24,465 nt of DNA from a virus (taxonomy: Duplodnaviria; Caudoviricetes): the IMG/VR virus record IMGVR_UViG_3300044302_000993, positions 1 to 24,465 of that record; one strand, given 5' to 3'. Below, piece after piece: positions 6,326-13,102 of this stretch (positions are counted from its first letter, which is position 1; every line of letters starts with the position of its first letter). The position numbers and the translations under genes are program-made. Below the pieces are notes generated by a model. It was given only the letters and a program-made list of their open reading frames with translations, searched no databases and was not told the origin of the DNA.

Positions 6326-7326
6326 TATGAATAAGCAATATTATTTATTGTTACTGGTTCAGGATATCTAGCTCTTAAATCTTTTCTAGCTTGTTGTAAT
6401 AATGCTCTTTGATATGCAAGTAATGAGTTTCTAATTCTTGTAGCAGAGTCAACAGGAAAACTTTCTAACTCTAATTGTTCTGAAATATAATCTGATGTTG
6501 CACTAGGTATATCTCTTCCTGACATCATTTGTGCTGCAACTCCTGCCATGATAATAGGTTCATATTCATCTTCTAAACCTATTGTTGTAAGTGTGTCAGA
6601 TTCTAATGTTGGTTCTATAAACTTCTTTTTAAATGTAACATAAACTTTATGTCCTGAAGATATACCAGTAAACTGTACAGCCTTAACATTGTCAGGACCT
6701 GTTGTATAAGTTATTGTTCTTTCTGTACCTGTGTCGTCAGTATATGTAAAAGGATTAGGCAAATCAACTAACTCAACTGCAACTCCTCTATAAGTTACTG
6801 TAGTTGAATCAGCACCTGCAGAAAAATCTGTATATTGTGATATAGCTTTTATTGGTGCTACTAAATTATTATGTGTACCAGGAGCATCATATGTTCCTAT
6901 TAAAGTATAACCATCACTTACAGTTATCTCTTGTGTGTCTACTGCAAATAATGTAGGATATAAGTTTTTAATTTGGTCACATACTGCATCGAATACAACT
7001 TTCCTTGGGAATGGTGGTGCAATTTTAACTATAGCTCCACTATCATGTGAGTCTGCTGATGTACCTCTTGCACCTCTAACAACTGTTACTTGATTATTAA
7101 CTGTGTCAAGAGCTGTACAATACATTAACTCATGTTCACATTCAATAACAGTTCCTGCATCCATTGCATCTTTTTCTTCTTGGGTTAACAAATCTCCATT
7201 AAAAGATAGTGTTGTAACACTTGAGTTCATAGAAGAACTTAATGCTGTATATGATGACAAGTCATCCATAGGTTCAAGATACTCTCTAAAAACTCTATCT
7301 ACTAATCCTCTAATATTTGTACTCAT
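6325..7326 (-). CDS. Head-tail adaptor / tail tubular protein A-like (333 aa)
   Basis: Helical N-terminus (IRGLVDRVFREYL) and C-terminus (YEPIIMAGVAAQMM...YQRALLQQARKDL) around a beta core; located between capsid and nozzle genes. Confidence 0.6.
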   Translation of the reverse strand: MSTNIRGLVDRVFREYLEPMDDLSSYTALSSSMNSSVTTLSFNGDLLTQEEKDAMDAGTVIECEHELMYCTALDTVNNQVTVVRGARGTSADSHDSGAIVKIAPPFPRKVVFDAVCDQIKNLYPTLFAVDTQEITVSDGYTLIGTYDAPGTHNNLVAPIKAISQYTDFSAGADSTTVTYRGVAVELVDLPNPFTYTDDTGTERTITYTTGPDNVKAVQFTGISSGHKVYVTFKKKFIEPTLESDTLTTIGLEDEYEPIIMAGVAAQMMSGRDIPSATSDYISEQLELESFPVDSATRIRNSLLAYQRALLQQARKDLRARYPEPVTINNIAYS

Positions 7327-7520
7327 TAAGCTGCCTTATCTTCTGCGTTTACTGTTTTAGCAAAATGTGATTGTCCGAACATAGCCATACCAAAAGCAGC
7401 ACTACGTACTTCACTTACAGGTACAGCAGCTTCCATAGGATAAGATTCTTGAATAGGTGTACTACCTTTAGAATCTATATCTAAAACTCTACCTTCTTTA
7501 AGCATTAAGAGCATACTCAT
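7326..7520 (-). CDS. Small hypothetical virion protein (64 aa)
   Basis: AGGAG RBS upstream of ATG; TAATG coupling to the adaptor; contains FGMAMFGQSHFA motif. Confidence 0.6.
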   Translation of the reverse strand: MSMLLMLKEGRVLDIDSKGSTPIQESYPMEAAVPVSEVRSAAFGMAMFGQSHFAKTVNAEDKAA

Positions 7521-7528
7521 TGTTACTC

Positions 7529-7861
7529 CTAACTGTGTCTAAAGTATAATGCTATGCTTCTGTCTGCTGCTTCTGTACCATTAGATGATACTCTGATATA
7601 TCCATTACTTGCAAAAGCCCAACCTGAAGGGTCTACTCTTAATAGGTTTCCTGCTGAAACTGTGTAGCTAACTTCTGTGCCGTCTGTTTCAAAAACATCA
7701 ACCCATCCTGTGCTACCGTTCATAGAGAAATCAAATGTAATTGCAGAACCTGTCATTGCTGCAGGGAACTCAATACCGCAAAGTAACATGCCATCTGTCT
7801 TTACAGCTAGGCTATCATTGTTATCTTCTGATACATCTATTAAAGCTGTTTTACTTATCAT
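7529..7861 (-). CDS. Small beta-sandwich virion protein, possible head decoration (110 aa)
   Basis: First gene after the capsid terminator; beta-rich (GIEFPAAMTGSAITF...YIRVSS...EAADRSI). Function inferred from position only. Confidence 0.5.
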   Translation of the reverse strand: MISKTALIDVSEDNNDSLAVKTDGMLLCGIEFPAAMTGSAITFDFSMNGSTGWVDVFETDGTEVSYTVSAGNLLRVDPSGWAFASNGYIRVSSNGTEAADRSIALYFRHS

Positions 7862-7870
7862 ATCTTCCTT

Positions 7871-7880
7871 ACTATAGCAG
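7871..7880 (-). promoter_or_regulatory. Candidate extended -10 promoter (CTGCTATAGT)
   Basis: TG-n-TATAGT immediately after the terminator; 9/10 identical to CTGCTATACT at 9740..9749; only 9 nt upstream of the ATG at 7861. Confidence 0.5.
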
Positions 7881-7910
7881 AAGAAAAGGGTGGAGGTGGA
7901 GTTCCACCCT
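7881..7910 (-). terminator. Rho-independent terminator after the major capsid gene
   Basis: Minus-strand RNA AGGGUGGA-ACUCCACC-UCCACCCU-UUUCUU: 8-bp GC-rich stem plus U-rich tail, 24 nt after the capsid stop codon. Confidence 0.8.
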
Positions 7911-7934
7911 AATCTTCAATTTATTATTATAACT

Positions 7935-9059
7935 TTACGCTACTGCTTGAATCTTACAATGGTATGAAGGAGGTCCGAATTCGAATCCCATCTCCATGTA
8001 TATTGCTTTACCAATTCTTGCGTTGGCATCTTGGTCTAGGTCTCTTACAAACACAGTACCAAATCCTGGGATGTTGGTAAATACTGGTTGTATATAAGCC
8101 AAGTCTAAGATGAAAGCAGTTCCTGTTGGCATGATGTCAGGGTCAATAACCATTAGTCCTATTGCACCAAATGGAGTGACTACTGTATCAATATCAACAC
8201 CTGCAACATTTCTATCTCTAGGAATGATTGCACCTGCTATATCAACTGTACCTTTAACAAGTTCATTGTTAAGGTCTAGTAATTGTTGTGGACTAACGCA
8301 TAGTACAGGTTGTTTCATTGGAGCATGGTTGTCATACATTCTCTTTAACGCACCTGATATAGTTGCGAAAGAGATGACTTGAGCTGAACCAGTTCCGTCA
8401 CCTGAAGCGTCATTGTAGTAGCAGTTCCCACCTAATGGGTTTACTGCTGCAGAGTTGCTAGCGTTCTTGTTTAATGTAATCCATACATCAATACCGTACA
8501 TTTCTCTAGTTCCTGACCCAGGTGTTGTGTTAGCACCATCTGAGAAAGAACCATTGAATGCAAACCACTCAACTTCTCTTGCTACTTTTTCCATAGCTTT
8601 TTCAAGCTGTAAAGCAAATTCATCGTTTACTGGATTACCACCGAATAATCCTAATTTATCGCCTGCAGTTGTTGTACCATCTCCATCGGAGACATTTACA
8701 ATGTCTGCTGACAAGTCAAAAGGATTTTGGTTTCCTGTGGATGCTAAAGCTGTATAAGTCATCTGAACACCTTTATGGAAGATTTGAGTTACATAAGTGT
8801 ATGCAGCTCTGTCTCTACCAAGATATTCTGTAGGTGTAGAACCTTCTTGACCTTTAGTAGGTTCAGAAGAAATGGTTGCATTATCTTCTACTTGGACTTG
8901 CCAATATGTAGAGTTTAATGTCTTACCGCCATTCAATCCGCCAACTGCAGATAGTAAAGGAGTTCTTTGACCACCAACTTTAAACAATTCACCAGTAAAG
9001 TTATTAATATCTTGTGCATATATTGGGGTACTTGCGTTTAACCCACTTATTTCTGCCAT
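7935..9059 (-). CDS. Major capsid protein, HK97 fold, SU10/DUF5309-like (374 aa)
   Basis: Motifs RTPLLSAVG, TQIFHKGVQMT, EFALQLEKAMEKVAREVE, REMYGI, DTVVTPFG; follows the scaffold, has a GAAAGG RBS and is followed by a terminator. Confidence 0.85.
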   Translation of the reverse strand: MAEISGLNASTPIYAQDINNFTGELFKVGGQRTPLLSAVGGLNGGKTLNSTYWQVQVEDNATISSEPTKGQEGSTPTEYLGRDRAAYTYVTQIFHKGVQMTYTALASTGNQNPFDLSADIVNVSDGDGTTTAGDKLGLFGGNPVNDEFALQLEKAMEKVAREVEWFAFNGSFSDGANTTPGSGTREMYGIDVWITLNKNASNSAAVNPLGGNCYYNDASGDGTGSAQVISFATISGALKRMYDNHAPMKQPVLCVSPQQLLDLNNELVKGTVDIAGAIIPRDRNVAGVDIDTVVTPFGAIGLMVIDPDIMPTGTAFILDLAYIQPVFTNIPGFGTVFVRDLDQDANARIGKAIYMEMGFEFGPPSYHCKIQAVA

Positions 9060-9069
9060 ATTAATCTAA

Positions 9070-9092
9070 CCTTTCCGATATATTGCTATATC
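9070..9092 (-). promoter_or_regulatory. GNRA-tetraloop hairpin next to the capsid ribosome-binding site
   Basis: RNA GAUAUA-GCAA-UAUAUC (9092..9077), then G and GAAAGG (9075..9070), 10 nt before the capsid ATG. Confidence 0.45.
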
Positions 9093-9574
9093 TATTGTTT
9101 ATTTTGTTTTTTAATTTCGTCCATCATCGCAAGTTTTGCTCCGATGGTATTCTTAACAGAAGTTTCAGGGTTTCTTATATAGTTAACTACCTCCTGCATA
9201 GCTTCTACAGGCTCATTATCTATCCCTAATTTATTAAGTTGCTCTACACGTGATTGAGCTTCAACTACGTTTGTAGCAATGGTTTCATCAGTTGCAGGTT
9301 CAGCATTAATAGCATCTCCTTCACCAAATTCTTTAGCAACAAATTCTTTGATGTCTTCGACATTTGCCTTGCCATCATATAATTTTGTTACTGCTTTACC
9401 AATACCTTTATCAGGTTCAAGACCCATAGAAGTTAGCGCAGAATTCATAATTCCTTGCTTGTATTCTTTATTCTCAGCTTTGATTTTTTTATATTCATCT
9501 CTGAGTTGTTGAATACTACCTTCTTCAGGACTCTCCTGAGTATCTTCAACTTGTTGTTCTTTTGGTTCTTCCAT
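9092..9574 (-). CDS. Capsid scaffolding protein (160 aa; probable start 9574 rather than 9598)
   Basis: Acidic N-terminus, coiled coil (IQQLRDEYKKIKAENKEYK), directly upstream of the capsid gene; GGAG lies 6 nt before the ATG at 9574. Confidence 0.75.
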   Translation of the reverse strand: MEEPKEQQVEDTQESPEEGSIQQLRDEYKKIKAENKEYKQGIMNSALTSMGLEPDKGIGKAVTKLYDGKANVEDIKEFVAKEFGEGDAINAEPATDETIATNVVEAQSRVEQLNKLGIDNEPVEAMQEVVNYIRNPETSVKNTIGAKLAMMDEIKKQNKQ

Positions 9575-9733
9575 TATTTTCTCCGTTTTCTCTAGCATAT
9601 AAAAAATCCCATAACAATAATCGCTAGGTAATTAAAGGGATTGTCCACAAGGGTTTACAAATGACAAAGAGAATACCTTGGAGATTCTCTCGAATACGAC
9701 CCTATATTTAGCGTGCCGACCTCGTCAGGCACT
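9575..9733 (-). ncRNA. Candidate structured cis-regulatory leader RNA of the scaffold-capsid transcript
   Basis: Largest intergenic gap in the window. Four consecutive stems (GUGCC/GGCAC + GAC/GUC; AGAGAAU/AUUCUCU; UUGUC/GACAA; AAUCCC/GGGAUU) plus loop complementarities CAAGG/CCUUG and CUAGCG/UGCUAG. Not matched to a known family. Confidence 0.55.
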
Positions 9734-9739
9734 ATATGT

Positions 9740-9766
9740 AGTATAGCAGGTTTATCCTTCTGTCAA
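9740..9766 (-). promoter_or_regulatory. Sigma70/SigA-type promoter for the scaffold-capsid genes
   Basis: TTGACA (9766..9761), 15-nt spacer ending TGC, then TATACT (9745..9740). The spacer is short but the extended -10 is strong; predicted start ~9733 coincides with the first hairpin. Confidence 0.65.
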
Positions 9767-11002
9767 GCCTTCTACAGAACCAGTTTGCCCACGTCTAGCG
9801 CCTGTTGCAACGGATGAACCTGAGACATTTTGAGCTATTATTGCAGATTGTTCTCTCTTAGCTGCAGGGTCTTGAAATACATCAGACTGTAAAACATCTT
9901 CAAGTCCTACTTGACGTGTTCTATTCTGCTGTCTACTAAGTCTATTTAATGTAGCTATAGAATCAGCACTTCTAGCAAACAATCTAGTTGCACCTTCTTC
10001 AGTTATACCTGCTTGTAATAATCTCTGTGCTTGATTTGTATTTAAATCTAAGTTACGTAATGCTGCTTCAGCACCTAACTCTGCTATATCTATTTGATTG
10101 TTTAATATACCTACAGATACATCAGGGTCAAGTGCTGCTGCAAACACAGCATTATCTCCTAAGCTAATATTAAAGTTAGCTTCGTAGTATGCTTTTATTT
10201 CAGCTGCTTTAGGATTATCTACAAACGCTTCTCTAGTAGCGGTTACTCTACTCCTAAATTCAGGAACGCTTACATCTCCTGCTATAAGTTGAGATACTTT
10301 CCCTAAACCATCAAATATAGTTGGATTCAAACCATTCTCCAACAAAACTCTAAAATATCCTTCTCTTGTTTGTTCGTATTGTGTTTCGTTCATTCTTAAT
10401 GAACCATCATCTCTTTTAATACCAGGATAGTAAGTAGTATATTCTGCTGAGTTACGAACAGCAGCTATTGAAAAATCACCACTACCTGTAGATATATAAG
10501 TATCTGTGTATATCTGTAACAAATCACCTTTTCCTTTAAACCAAGGAACTAAGTCTTCAATTTGTTTTGGTGTTGCTACTTCTTCAGGTATATCAGGAAC
10601 CTCTGTAGGTTTACCGAAATTATCAAACATGCTTCCTAATTTATCTAAGAAGTCATCTTTGCTAGTATCTTCACCACCTCCAAGTAATTCCCAACTTGAA
10701 CCTGTCCATTGATATTGAAGACCATTAATAGTTTTGATATCTCCTACAGCAGGACCAGTTACTTCTTCTTCATCATCATCAACAGGAGGAGGAGTTTCTT
10801 CAGGAGGAGCAGAATCAGTACCTTTAACAAGTCCTGTTGTATTAGTAATAGCACCAAACTTTTCTGATTGTGCTTGTGCTTCTGCAATAGACCTCGAACC
10901 TTGTATCTTATCTTGAGCTGCTGCTCTAGTTATAGGTCCAATAATTCCATCAGCTGTAACACCTAATTCTCTTTGTAATGCTTTAATTTCTTCTGTTGTC
11001 AT
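9752..11002 (-). CDS. Putative internal virion protein with N-terminal peptidoglycan-binding domain (416 aa)
   Basis: EIKALQRELGVTADGIIGPITRAA matches the PGBD LQ-x-x-L...DG-x-x-G-x-x-T signature; Pro/acidic linker; helical C-terminal region. Confidence 0.6.
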   Translation of the reverse strand: MTTEEIKALQRELGVTADGIIGPITRAAAQDKIQGSRSIAEAQAQSEKFGAITNTTGLVKGTDSAPPEETPPPVDDDEEEVTGPAVGDIKTINGLQYQWTGSSWELLGGGEDTSKDDFLDKLGSMFDNFGKPTEVPDIPEEVATPKQIEDLVPWFKGKGDLLQIYTDTYISTGSGDFSIAAVRNSAEYTTYYPGIKRDDGSLRMNETQYEQTREGYFRVLLENGLNPTIFDGLGKVSQLIAGDVSVPEFRSRVTATREAFVDNPKAAEIKAYYEANFNISLGDNAVFAAALDPDVSVGILNNQIDIAELGAEAALRNLDLNTNQAQRLLQAGITEEGATRLFARSADSIATLNRLSRQQNRTRQVGLEDVLQSDVFQDPAAKREQSAIIAQNVSGSSVATGARRGQTGSVEGLTEG

Positions 11003-12231
11003 TAATATACTCCAGTTACTGCGCCACCTGCAATAACATTTTGAATACCACTATTCTTTAATGTGCTTGCCATTTTTGCTAATGCACCTTCATCTTGTAC
11101 ATTTAAGAAGTGCGCTCTTATCATATCAGGAATTTTTGCTGAATCATTTTCTTGTAGTATGTTCATAACTAAATCAACATCTCTACCATCTTCATCAAAG
11201 GTTCCTTCTCTTCCAATGACAGGTCTTAAACCTGCAAGAGTTGTAGAATAATTACTTCCTTTAAATCTATCAGCTACAAATCCATCCCATATACCTTGCG
11301 CTCTTGCTTGAATTTCTTCTGCTCCACCTTCTACAGCTAAAGCATTTACTAAGAAATCTTTATCCTGTGCTGTAAATCCCATAGATAAAGTATTACCAAG
11401 AGTGCTATTTAAAATACCATTTACTTGATTAAGTAATGCTTTACTTTTACCTACGCTGTAATTATTATCTGCAATGTAACCTTGTAACTCAGGGTCTCTA
11501 TAACCAGGTATCTCAGAAAATACAGCTAACTTAAATTGATTTCTTAATTGGTTTGCATCAAATTTACCTGTTAATCTCATTTCATAAAACTTTTGTATTA
11601 AGTTTTCATCCATATCAAACATGGCATATTTAGCTACAAGACCTGAAATTTCTAATTTAGCTTTATCTTCTAATACTCTTAATGATGCGTTAGAATCACT
11701 ATCTGAACCTAGCGCCCAAGCTGCTGTAAATGCTCTTTGGTCTGCTGTTAATGATTTTAAACTTGGAGCAAACTGTTCGTATTCTGCATTACCATAGTTT
11801 GTACCACTATATATATTGTCTAAATAAGCTAACAAATAAGCATACTGTCCACCTACGTCTTCTCCAAATGAATTAACTGCACCTTCAGCTTCTTGTGTTA
11901 ATAAGAAAGGATTAATTTTAGATTCTAATAATATATCATCTATTAATAATTCAAGAGGATTACCTCTAAGAGTTCCATCTATTTCTTCTATGCTTCCTAA
12001 ATTAGTAGCAAAGTCATCTATTTCGTCTATGTTAACTCTTGGTACACCTGCCGCAGGGTCATAGATTGTATCAGATGTATAGTAATAATAAGTTGTAGGA
12101 CCTGTAATTCCAAATACTTCAGGATTAATTTCCCATATGTAATATACGACCCCATCTTTTGTTGCAACGGAATCAGGTACAACAGTATTGTTTACTTGTA
12201 AATCAGTTACTTCTTCATTATCGGTTGTCAT
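11002..12231 (-). CDS. Hypothetical protein, putative internal virion protein (409 aa)
   Basis: Long acidic ORF with G-rich RBS, overlapping both neighbours; function inferred from position only. Confidence 0.5.
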   Translation of the reverse strand: MTTDNEEVTDLQVNNTVVPDSVATKDGVVYYIWEINPEVFGITGPTTYYYYTSDTIYDPAAGVPRVNIDEIDDFATNLGSIEEIDGTLRGNPLELLIDDILLESKINPFLLTQEAEGAVNSFGEDVGGQYAYLLAYLDNIYSGTNYGNAEYEQFAPSLKSLTADQRAFTAAWALGSDSDSNASLRVLEDKAKLEISGLVAKYAMFDMDENLIQKFYEMRLTGKFDANQLRNQFKLAVFSEIPGYRDPELQGYIADNNYSVGKSKALLNQVNGILNSTLGNTLSMGFTAQDKDFLVNALAVEGGAEEIQARAQGIWDGFVADRFKGSNYSTTLAGLRPVIGREGTFDEDGRDVDLVMNILQENDSAKIPDMIRAHFLNVQDEGALAKMASTLKNSGIQNVIAGGAVTGVY

Positions 12232-13102
12232 CTACCCCCCTACTCATACTGTCAGGTCTTAAAGCGTCAGCTTTTTTAATACCATGATGATATAAATATT
12301 CTAGTATTTCTCTTTGTATTATTCTTCTACCTTGAGCATCATAAAATCTTCCTGCACCTCTAACTGGGTCTTGCGTTGGTCTTTTCATATCTGTCTCAAA
12401 CCTTGCATCTTGATAGCTGCCTGCTTCTTTAGGAACTTGTGATTCAAATTCTCTTTGATTAGATTCATTAAAATAAAATCTTGCATCTTCTTTAAATTCA
12501 GGTGGTGGAGTAGTGTCAACATCAGAGTCTAATTTATCTTGGTGATAAAGTATTTGTTCATCTACATCATTTTTATGTGGTATAGCGGTAGGGTCAGTAG
12601 TTACTCTGCCTTCAAACTTTTCAATAGTTAACCAGTATAAATCTTCTAAACCTTCTTCATATGACATATTTTCATTTTGCTTTTGCCAAAATAAATTCTT
12701 AACCATAACAGCAGCTTCTTCTATATCTAAAGATTTTAGAAAGTCACTTACATAACCTCTTTGTTCTTTAGTAAATTGTCTGTTATCTTTAGTGCCTTCC
12801 CTGTTATGACTCATCTGCATTTCTTGTTCTCTTGTTGTGCCAGGTGGTAAATCATATCCTACATCTACCATTGTCTTGTATATAGCAGGACCCATAGAAC
12901 TTAAATTAACTTGTACTAAACCATACGATTCTGATTCAGGGTCTTTAGTATCTTGAACAAATATTTGTTGTTCTCCATTTACTGTTCCTCTTGATTCATA
13001 TCCAAGTATAGGAACTAATGTAGTTGCTTGTTCTTTACTAAAACCATTAGCTAATAAAGCGTTATACATTCTTCTTACTTTAAGTAATTCTTCTCTTGTC
13101 AT
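12218..13102 (-). CDS. Virion-associated lysozyme/lytic transglycosylase-like protein (294 aa)
   Basis: N-terminal YNALLANGFSKEQA...ILGYES (putative catalytic Glu) followed by SYGLVQVN, matching the GL-x-Q-[IV]-N motif of the lysozyme superfamily. Confidence 0.65.
   Translation of the reverse strand: MTREELLKVRRMYNALLANGFSKEQATTLVPILGYESRGTVNGEQQIFVQDTKDPESESYGLVQVNLSSMGPAIYKTMVDVGYDLPPGTTREQEMQMSHNREGTKDNRQFTKEQRGYVSDFLKSLDIEEAAVMVKNLFWQKQNENMSYEEGLEDLYWLTIEKFEGRVTTDPTAIPHKNDVDEQILYHQDKLDSDVDTTPPPEFKEDARFYFNESNQREFESQVPKEAGSYQDARFETDMKRPTQDPVRGAGRFYDAQGRRIIQREILEYLYHHGIKKADALRPDSMSRGVDDNR

Follow-up and report, generated by a model that had tools for sequence, protein, structure and literature searches.

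In a 24,465-nucleotide stretch of viral DNA (hereafter the window), the minus strand between 9732 and 9590 is predicted, from comparison with its relatives, to fold into three H-type pseudoknots in series, which extend from a promoter-like element to the ribosome site of a probable head scaffold gene (Table 1). The comparisons indicate that this leader belongs to a real RNA family that is absent from the catalogues searched and is a variant of the pseudoknot leader; arrays of three or four knots, with interchangeable units, lie at the front of the head message in a widespread marine phage family without cultured members. A first-pass annotation of the window had proposed an uncatalogued structured RNA upstream of the scaffold and capsid genes, and that proposal is borne out by covariation in relatives, by a greater tolerance of G-U than of A-C, and by the lack of an Rfam match.

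Genome context of the leader

All of the long genes in the window, which represents part of a tailed phage genome, are on the minus strand. Read in that direction they are the terminase large subunit gene, a set of long genes without family assignments, a gene of 416 codons that ends at 9752, and then, after a gap of 177 nucleotides, a 160-codon gene and an SU10-family major capsid gene with its own AU-rich ribosome site. The 160-amino-acid product is probably the head scaffold: its predicted model is all-helical (mean pLDDT 66.9), the nearest cluster bearing a Pfam family is PF06810 Phage_scaffold at 0.89 (a lead only), and the gene that precedes the homologous capsid gene in phages Bernal13 and Gaia is annotated as scaffolding. 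A Foldseek search with the scaffold model found no match. The start codon at 9574-9572 aligns in relatives; an in-frame ATG at 9598 was rejected as the start, its frame, judged by eye, not being kept in them. At the other end of the leader the extended -10 element is conserved in all six groups of relatives described below and is absent from the output of a scan for -35/-10 promoters; transcription would start at about 9735-9733.

Table 1. Features of the leader and the adjacent head genes in the window.
Feature	Positions	Strand	Details
Extended -10 promoter-like element	9740..9748	-	TG-n plus hexamer 9745-9740; conserved in all six groups
Pseudoknot 1 (predicted)	9696..9732	-	Stem 1 9732-9728/9717-9713; stem 2 9725-9722/9699-9696 plus 9720-9718/9702-9700, one bulge
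Pseudoknot 2 (predicted; middle, most conserved unit), stem 1	9646..9692	-	9691-9684/9674-9667 plus C9692-G9665
Pseudoknot 2, stem 2	9646..9692	-	9680-9676/9652-9648 plus C9681-G9646 past a one-base bulge; A-rich loop 3
Pseudoknot 3 (predicted; adjoins ribosome site), stem 1	9590..9642	-	9642-9637/9610-9605 plus 9634-9631/9621-9618
Pseudoknot 3, stem 2	9590..9642	-	9627-9622/9597-9592 plus C9628-G9590 past a one-base bulge
Shine-Dalgarno-like GGAG of scaffold gene	9581..9584	-	From the sequence
Probable head scaffolding protein, 160 aa	9092..9574	-	phrog_7813, function of phrog not assigned
Major capsid protein, SU10_MCP family	7935..9059	-	PF17236, E 2.4e-42; phrog_1328 major head protein
Long hairpin 3' of capsid gene, conserved CCAC-containing loop	7880..7917	-	Sole terminator-like match in 7300-11200

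Structure and covariation of the leader

Four scans with capsid queries yielded 251 loci; once duplicates, incomplete loci and a distant pair (L250 and L251, with capsids at about 30%) had been removed, 173 distinct leaders were left. These constitute six sequence groups – A (34 leaders, including that of the window), B (33) with B2 (21), C (2), D (2), E (51) and F (30) – between which mean capsid identity drops to about 47%, and each of which keeps three or four knots.

The first-pass annotation had drawn four hairpins, a kissing loop and a single pseudoknot; all of the stretches that it named are present where it placed them, and alignment of the 34 group A leaders (alignment A2) separates the pairings that hold from those that do not. 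The outer helix of the first hairpin, now stem 1 of pseudoknot 1, is well supported (98.8% paired, with both sides changed in 3 of 5 pairs); its inner helix is doubtful, with the three pairs kept in 33/33, 26/33 and 11/33 rows, although folding restricted to nested pairs favours it for the window sequence (0.94). Pairing of this hairpin loop with 9702-9696, which creates the first pseudoknot, had been missed. That helix, stem 2, is 91.9% paired and has five alleles; four of its seven pairs change on both sides, in 13, 3, 16 and 16 rows, and the 9720/9700 pair is broken in 14 of 33 rows. The second hairpin, stem 1 of pseudoknot 2, stands (95.4% paired, 8 of 9 pairs covarying), as do the fourth and its inner helix, which together form stem 1 of pseudoknot 3. 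The third hairpin (P3) fails, being 44.9% paired in relatives with a pair probability of 0.02, and it shares 9642-9641 with the fourth. Because this stem fails there is no kissing loop, and the pairing of 9680-9676 with 9652-9648 that had been read as one is instead stem 2 of an ordinary H-type pseudoknot, 100% paired and almost invariant within group A. The proposed pairing of 9627-9622 with 9597-9592 is retained as stem 2 of pseudoknot 3, ending seven nucleotides before the GGAG as claimed; it is 100% paired in group A and has one double change, in 5 of 34 rows, that is a single event on the tree. Knots 2 and 3 are almost invariant in group A, and their support therefore comes mainly from the other groups.

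With structures that were drawn by eye from the very sequences scored, the three-knot model is 95.6% paired over the 34 distinct group A leaders, compared with 33-44% for slid controls, and 17 of its 44 pairs change on both sides; across groups the tested helices are 92-100% paired, with slid controls at 22-50%. Four knots are present in group E (35 of 51 leaders aligned), where 98.7% of positions pair and 22 of 50 pairs are double-changed, and the last knot, which matches pseudoknot 3, has three of its six pairs changed in 13 of 35 rows. The corresponding values are 92.3% and 16 of 37 pairs for groups B and B2 combined (41 of 54 aligned), and 97.4% and 14 of 32 pairs for group F (22 of 30 aligned), the latter count leaving aside, because of register shifts, the whole of the last knot and a single stem of the third. 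In the MAFFT alignment A3 the middle knot of B2 is shifted by one register, such that helix 4 is 80.9% paired with 38 A-C and 38 G-U oppositions. Double-sided changes thus keep the pairings in several sequence groups, as the first-pass reading predicts, and both helices that define an H-type pseudoknot are kept in relatives, with double changes in the stem-2 helices included. On the scaffold-gene tree both sides change together for four of five pairs tested, and the fifth has two extra one-sided changes; recombination may be a source of the repeated pair changes on the tree. G-U outnumbers A-C by 148:10 in group A and by 81:5 in group E, an excess that indicates an RNA on the gene strand.

The expectation that the leader would fold more densely than shuffled sequence is upheld for pseudoknots and not for nested energy. 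Nested folding gives z +0.70, with 153 of 200 shuffles folding as well, in a program that cannot form pseudoknots; since nested folding is not unusual, the case rests on the relatives. A pseudoknot descriptor finds two units in the window leader and at most one in any of 1000 dinucleotide shuffles, and at least two units in 142 of 173 leaders compared with 1 of 865 shuffles, values to be read in the light of a descriptor written post hoc on sequences already seen and of a relatedness among leaders that inflates the shuffle control. It also matches 11 other single places on the minus strand of the window, so that single matches are uninformative. None of the 21 B2 leaders scores two units, because a G-C rule in the descriptor rejects their last helix, which, as read by eye, consists of A-U pairs only.

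A shared design with interchangeable units

Every group has the same order of an extended -10 element, a first knot, a conserved middle knot and a last knot, with an extra knot in groups D, E and F. The first stem begins 7 nt past the -10 hexamer in 31 of 34 group A leaders, and mostly 7-10 nt past it overall (31/34, 30/33, 20/21, 44/51 and 30/30 leaders). The last knot has the same design as the middle knot: a stem is followed by a short loop whose final base is C, then by a second helix, mostly of 5-6 pairs and usually C-first, by an A/U-rich loop 3 (mostly 70-90% A+U), and by a closing C-G pair past one bulged base. In a cross-group alignment of the middle knot, whose group B-F rows were chosen by patterns containing part of the motif, six bases are invariant (C, C, A, A, G and G), 204 of 204 cells are paired, and four of the six stem-2 pairs covary; its closing C-G pair is likewise invariant in the whole-leader alignments (34/34, 41/41, 35/35 and 22/22 rows).

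The units within a leader are not sequence repeats, and model R1, which represents the middle knot, matches one unit per leader. Mixing of units is illustrated by group C, which combines an E-type first knot with an A-type last knot. Linkers between the knots are 1-8 nt in groups A and E, and AU-rich and 5-24 nt in group B. The last knot ends 15-17 nt ahead of the start codon in four groups (A, B, C and F) and closer to it, at 8-11 nt, in most members of D and E, the two groups in which it takes the first G of the Shine-Dalgarno sequence.

Expression in marine RNA data

Twenty RNA runs, from 17 studies, match part of the region 7800-10400, and the four that were examined cover mainly the leader, scaffold and capsid genes, with little upstream. 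RNA contigs of three studies end at 9718, 9720 and 9721; in the fourth run cover breaks off earlier, in loose ends, and a low-depth contig at 9798-10057 is present in one run. The contigs show neither strand nor start, so their cover hints only weakly at expression, and the absence of cover upstream of 9722 in these four, out of 23 listed RNA runs, is not proof of a transcription start. One contig spans 9718 to 8583, from the leader through the scaffold gene into the capsid gene, although a contig is not proof of a single transcript. The position of the leader between promoter and ribosome site, with no terminator, favours the cis-acting role that the annotation had supposed.

Distribution, lineage and candidate host

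Model R1 has one copy per genome in each of four near-complete phage genomes, and within the candidate host family (65 genomes) it matches only the two phage contigs of one metagenome-assembled genome (MAG). An exact pattern occurs at 120 loci, of which 107 are immediately upstream of a scaffold homologue and two are cut-off members; the remaining 11 are chance-like, within an unrelated gene and without the first stem. The closest cultured capsids are 24-30% identical, and 22 of the 24 matching records are phages of Mycobacterium, Propionibacterium or Bifidobacterium; model R1 has no match among these cultured phages, and inspection of Bernal13 and B22 by eye showed no knot array.

Leader type maps with five changes, the fewest possible, on both the scaffold tree and the tree of the upstream gene, and with 13 on the capsid tree; it follows the scaffold and upstream-gene trees equally, and linkage alone therefore explains it. 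We note that the 13 changes on the capsid tree compared with five indicate exchange of capsid genes between lineages (loci L001-L249), and that capsids of groups A and B are up to 97% identical where their scaffolds are about 26% identical. Groups C, D, E and F have a middle knot of nearly the same sequence and scaffolds that are about 25-30% identical.

The lead to a host is provided by two related contigs binned in a 1.1-Mb marine Actinomycetota MAG, and the genome size of this MAG, together with PMC7771536, points weakly to Candidatus Actinomarina. Complete relatives were searched for whiB (0/4) and for tRNAs or other host markers, and none was found. One of these relatives (G001, L395 11175-11542) has a 369-nt gap with what seem by eye to be short repeated words, which might mark an origin of replication or a small gene missing from the annotation. 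In the candidate host family, 28 of the 31 genomes have RNase E/G, and in the one protein checked an Arg-Thr pair aligns to E. coli R169/T170, the 5'-sensor residues of that enzyme. A search for RNase J in 41 genomes of this marine actinobacterial family, which includes G005, gave a single long match, below the cut-off and containing a stop; this family, whose genomes are small and incomplete, seems to be without RNase J and to keep RNase E/G. A block to a 5'-3' exonuclease was rejected as the role of the leader, being unlikely if the host guess holds, with RNase J nearly absent. Long matches to ribosomal protein S1 are present in 26 of the 31 candidate host genomes. Two candidate host genomes (L386 and L387, at about 1400-1430) share a brief conserved stretch immediately past a promoter-like element with the S1 gene downstream; this is possibly an S1 autoregulatory leader.

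Relation to known structured RNAs

The covariance models of Rfam 15 have no match in the window (E<=1) or in the leader (E<=10), and the same search of six related loci, one per group (E 1), gave only a chance miRNA match outside the leader. The hammerhead ribozyme has a core of CUGANGA plus GAAA; a look-alike at 9728-9722 was rejected, as it varies across relatives and has no Rfam match. Type III antitoxin arrays (ToxI, AbiQ, CptI and TenpI) have near-identical repeats, a terminator and a toxin ribonuclease, whereas the units here differ in sequence, there is no terminator, and scaffold-like and capsid genes come next. The pRNA of phi29 is a separate transcript with two pairing hairpin loops, and the suggestion in the first-pass annotation of a similar loop-loop contact falls with the failure of P3; there is moreover no terminator, and an RNA contig continues into the genes. 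The upstream pseudoknot domain in the 3' untranslated region of tobacco mosaic virus has three serial H-type pseudoknots that raise stability and translation, but is at the 3' end of a plant RNA virus genome and operates with eukaryotic machinery.

A literature search found no description of such a pseudoknot array; the array is not described in the relevant parts of PMC5737381 and bioRxiv 10.64898/2026.09.22.753630, and short leader motifs have no match in part of the supplementary data of PMC10690425. Sections of PMC10690425 do report structured RNAs upstream of GP20 and capsid genes, and GP20-a (RF02991), GP20-b (RF03003) and six further motifs are alike in lying directly upstream of a GP20-type gene. 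Neither GP20-a nor GP20-b gives an Rfam match to the window leader, and the six others, from human, soil and wastewater habitats, are comparable by description only. The gene 32 leaders of T4, T2 and RB69 similarly place an H-type pseudoknot in the 5' leader of a very stable phage message, but have one knot and a long unstructured A+U tract, and bind a protein that binds single-stranded DNA (PMC3014915, in part). A layout of that type was rejected here, where there are three or four knots and, in most leaders, a distance of 8-19 nt from the end of the final one to the start codon. In the portion of PMC3014915 concerned, a 2010 review, the gene 32 knot is regarded as possibly the sole viral pseudoknot in translational autoregulation. 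The knots described in part of PMC9943677 as obstacles to RNase E are also H-type and in 5' leaders, where they protect downstream sites; they have 8-15 coaxial pairs, compared with about 12-17 pairs in each window knot, and are of viral or telomerase origin, introduced into E. coli reporters, whereas the present array is natural, serial and predicted. The standby knot of tisB is another 5'-end H-type knot in a bacterial leader, differing in that it is single and that the ribosome site of the toxin message is sequestered (PMC7708055, in part).

Proposed functions of the leader

We tentatively favour a role of the knot leader as a 5' shield that would protect the scaffold-capsid message from scanning by host RNase E, and put the probability of this at roughly 0.4. 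In E. coli, RNase E is described as scanning from a 5' monophosphate, as passing stem-loops and kissing loops, and as being slowed by H-type pseudoknots in proportion to their coaxial pairs (PMC9943677, in part); this difference between pseudoknots and hairpins would be why knots are kept here. Transcription would start 0-3 nt ahead of knot 1, leaving little free 5' end for entry of the decay machinery, and each knot would form a pairing block in line with the scanning path, such that cleavage further along, within the scaffold and capsid genes, would be retarded. Tertiary contacts stabilising each knot would be provided by the invariant C-G pairs, G-U and A-A, and the last knot, at the edge of the ribosome footprint, may also hold scaffold output below capsid output. 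Under the scanning model one would expect knots in place of hairpins, a shape conserved more than its sequence, units that can be swapped, an array beginning at the 5' end, and deployment on the head message; the shape is kept with sequence turnover in six groups, units are mixed, and their number is three or four. The geometry of the knots fits an obstacle to RNase E scanning, and blocking is predicted. Also in its favour are the closeness of the first stem to the -10 hexamer, the short linkers of groups A and E, the RNase E/G of the candidate host family, and RNA contigs that cover leader, scaffold and capsid with little upstream. The T4 gene 32 mRNA, with its pseudoknot-bearing leader, is the most stable T4 message, a further point for a shield; against it, that stability is tied to translation and not to the knot (PMC3014915, in part). 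Also against it, the AU-rich linkers of group B are possible RNase E cut sites, the host rests on two contigs of one MAG, with whiB in none of four complete relatives, and scanning was shown in E. coli and not in Actinobacteria. The CC...G(A/U)G end, invariant on two units, fits a protein- or ribosome-related role equally well, and the fixed distance of the last knot from the start codon fits translational control equally well.

A somewhat unlikely alternative is a feedback operator, in which free scaffold (or capsid) protein would bind the two matching knots through their bulged C-G end and block the scaffold ribosome site, in the manner of T4 gene 32 or of P22 scaffold autoregulation. The P22 scaffolding protein reportedly autoregulates its own synthesis, for which our literature search found no primary paper. 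GP20 is presumably the PF06810 scaffold family. Eight structured RNAs reported upstream of GP20 genes (PMC10690425, in part) and the gene 32 precedent (PMC3014915, in part) are consistent with an operator, as are the fixed position of the last knot, its taking of the first Shine-Dalgarno G in D and E, and the invariant closing C-G pair of the middle knot. The tree test (5, 5 and 13 changes) is neutral, with linkage explaining leader type; knots 1 and 2 are too far upstream to cover the ribosome site, the scaffold model has no recognisable RNA-binding fold, and the middle knot is alike in C, D, E and F despite the divergence of their scaffolds. A conserved unit beside divergent scaffolds would follow from a conserved host partner such as S1, and an enhancer of translation, in which the knots and A/U-rich loops would dock S1 and load the head message with 30S subunits in advance, is unlikely but has specific precedents: S1 has nanomolar affinity for H-type pseudoknots, and standby translation of tisB requires a 5' pseudoknot (both from parts of PMC7708055). 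The presence of S1 in most candidate host genomes and the A+U content of loop 3 agree with this, but the Shine-Dalgarno sequence is unpaired in A, B, C and F in the three-knot model, standby loading is not obviously needed, and the capsid gene has its own ribosome site out of the direct reach of the leader.

We consider it very unlikely that the leader is a tandem riboswitch, its two matching knots sharing a conserved core that would bind a small molecule and so adjust the output of head protein. The preQ1, SAM-II and guanidine-III aptamers are similar in size to small H-type knots adjoining a ribosome site, the six invariant bases could form a binding core (although tertiary contacts would also explain them), and a nested-only fold pairs the Shine-Dalgarno sequence with knot 2 bases (unpaired about 0.14), a possible off state. 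That pairing comes, however, from the fold of the window sequence, there is no Rfam match, the downstream genes are structural, and the 64 other genomes of the candidate host family have no copy. The slimmest chance is given to a separate or processed RNA acting in trans, whether as a pRNA-like packaging RNA, a scaffold for head assembly, or a decoy resembling pseudo-antitoxin repeats. Such an RNA would suit the promoter-like element, the compact stable units and the tandem pseudoknots of type III antitoxins, but no terminator precedes the scaffold gene, an RNA contig runs from 9718 into the capsid gene, the units are not sequence repeats, and P3 and the loop-loop contact both fail.

The shield, operator and enhancer roles can coexist. 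A further version, which we regard as decidedly improbable, makes the two matching knots sensors that a host metabolite or free head protein would lock, blocking RNase E and throttling scaffold synthesis; if true, this would be a phage tandem switch, built of swappable pseudoknot modules, that sets the lifetime of the head message and the ratio of scaffold to capsid. Were RNase E blocking by the shield true, the leaders would offer a naturally occurring test case for a model demonstrated until now mainly in engineered reporters, and a source of compact mRNA-stabilising parts of about 45-55 nt each. Binding of scaffold, if true, would give the long-standing question of scaffolding-protein self-regulation a defined RNA target.

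Other features of the head region

The hairpin at 7917-7880 is likely to be the 3' boundary of the head message. Among 132 distinct 3' regions, 122 have CCAC inside or beside the predicted loop; the stems turn over while the CCAC loop stays, and an extended -10 element (7879-7871) directly adjoins the hairpin. A partner for the CCAC loop was looked for in the leader, and none was found. Some group B leaders (L007 3256-3489, L008, L009, L022, L037 and L041) have a short purine-rich insert with GTGG in the gap between the middle and last knots; this insert, absent from most leaders, could pair with the CCAC loop. Upstream of the leader, the genes at 12218-13102 and 9752-11002 match domains of phage tail lysozyme and peptidoglycan-binding type weakly, below the cut-off, and we infer that their products, together with that of a 2209-codon gene, may be internal virion or ejection proteins.
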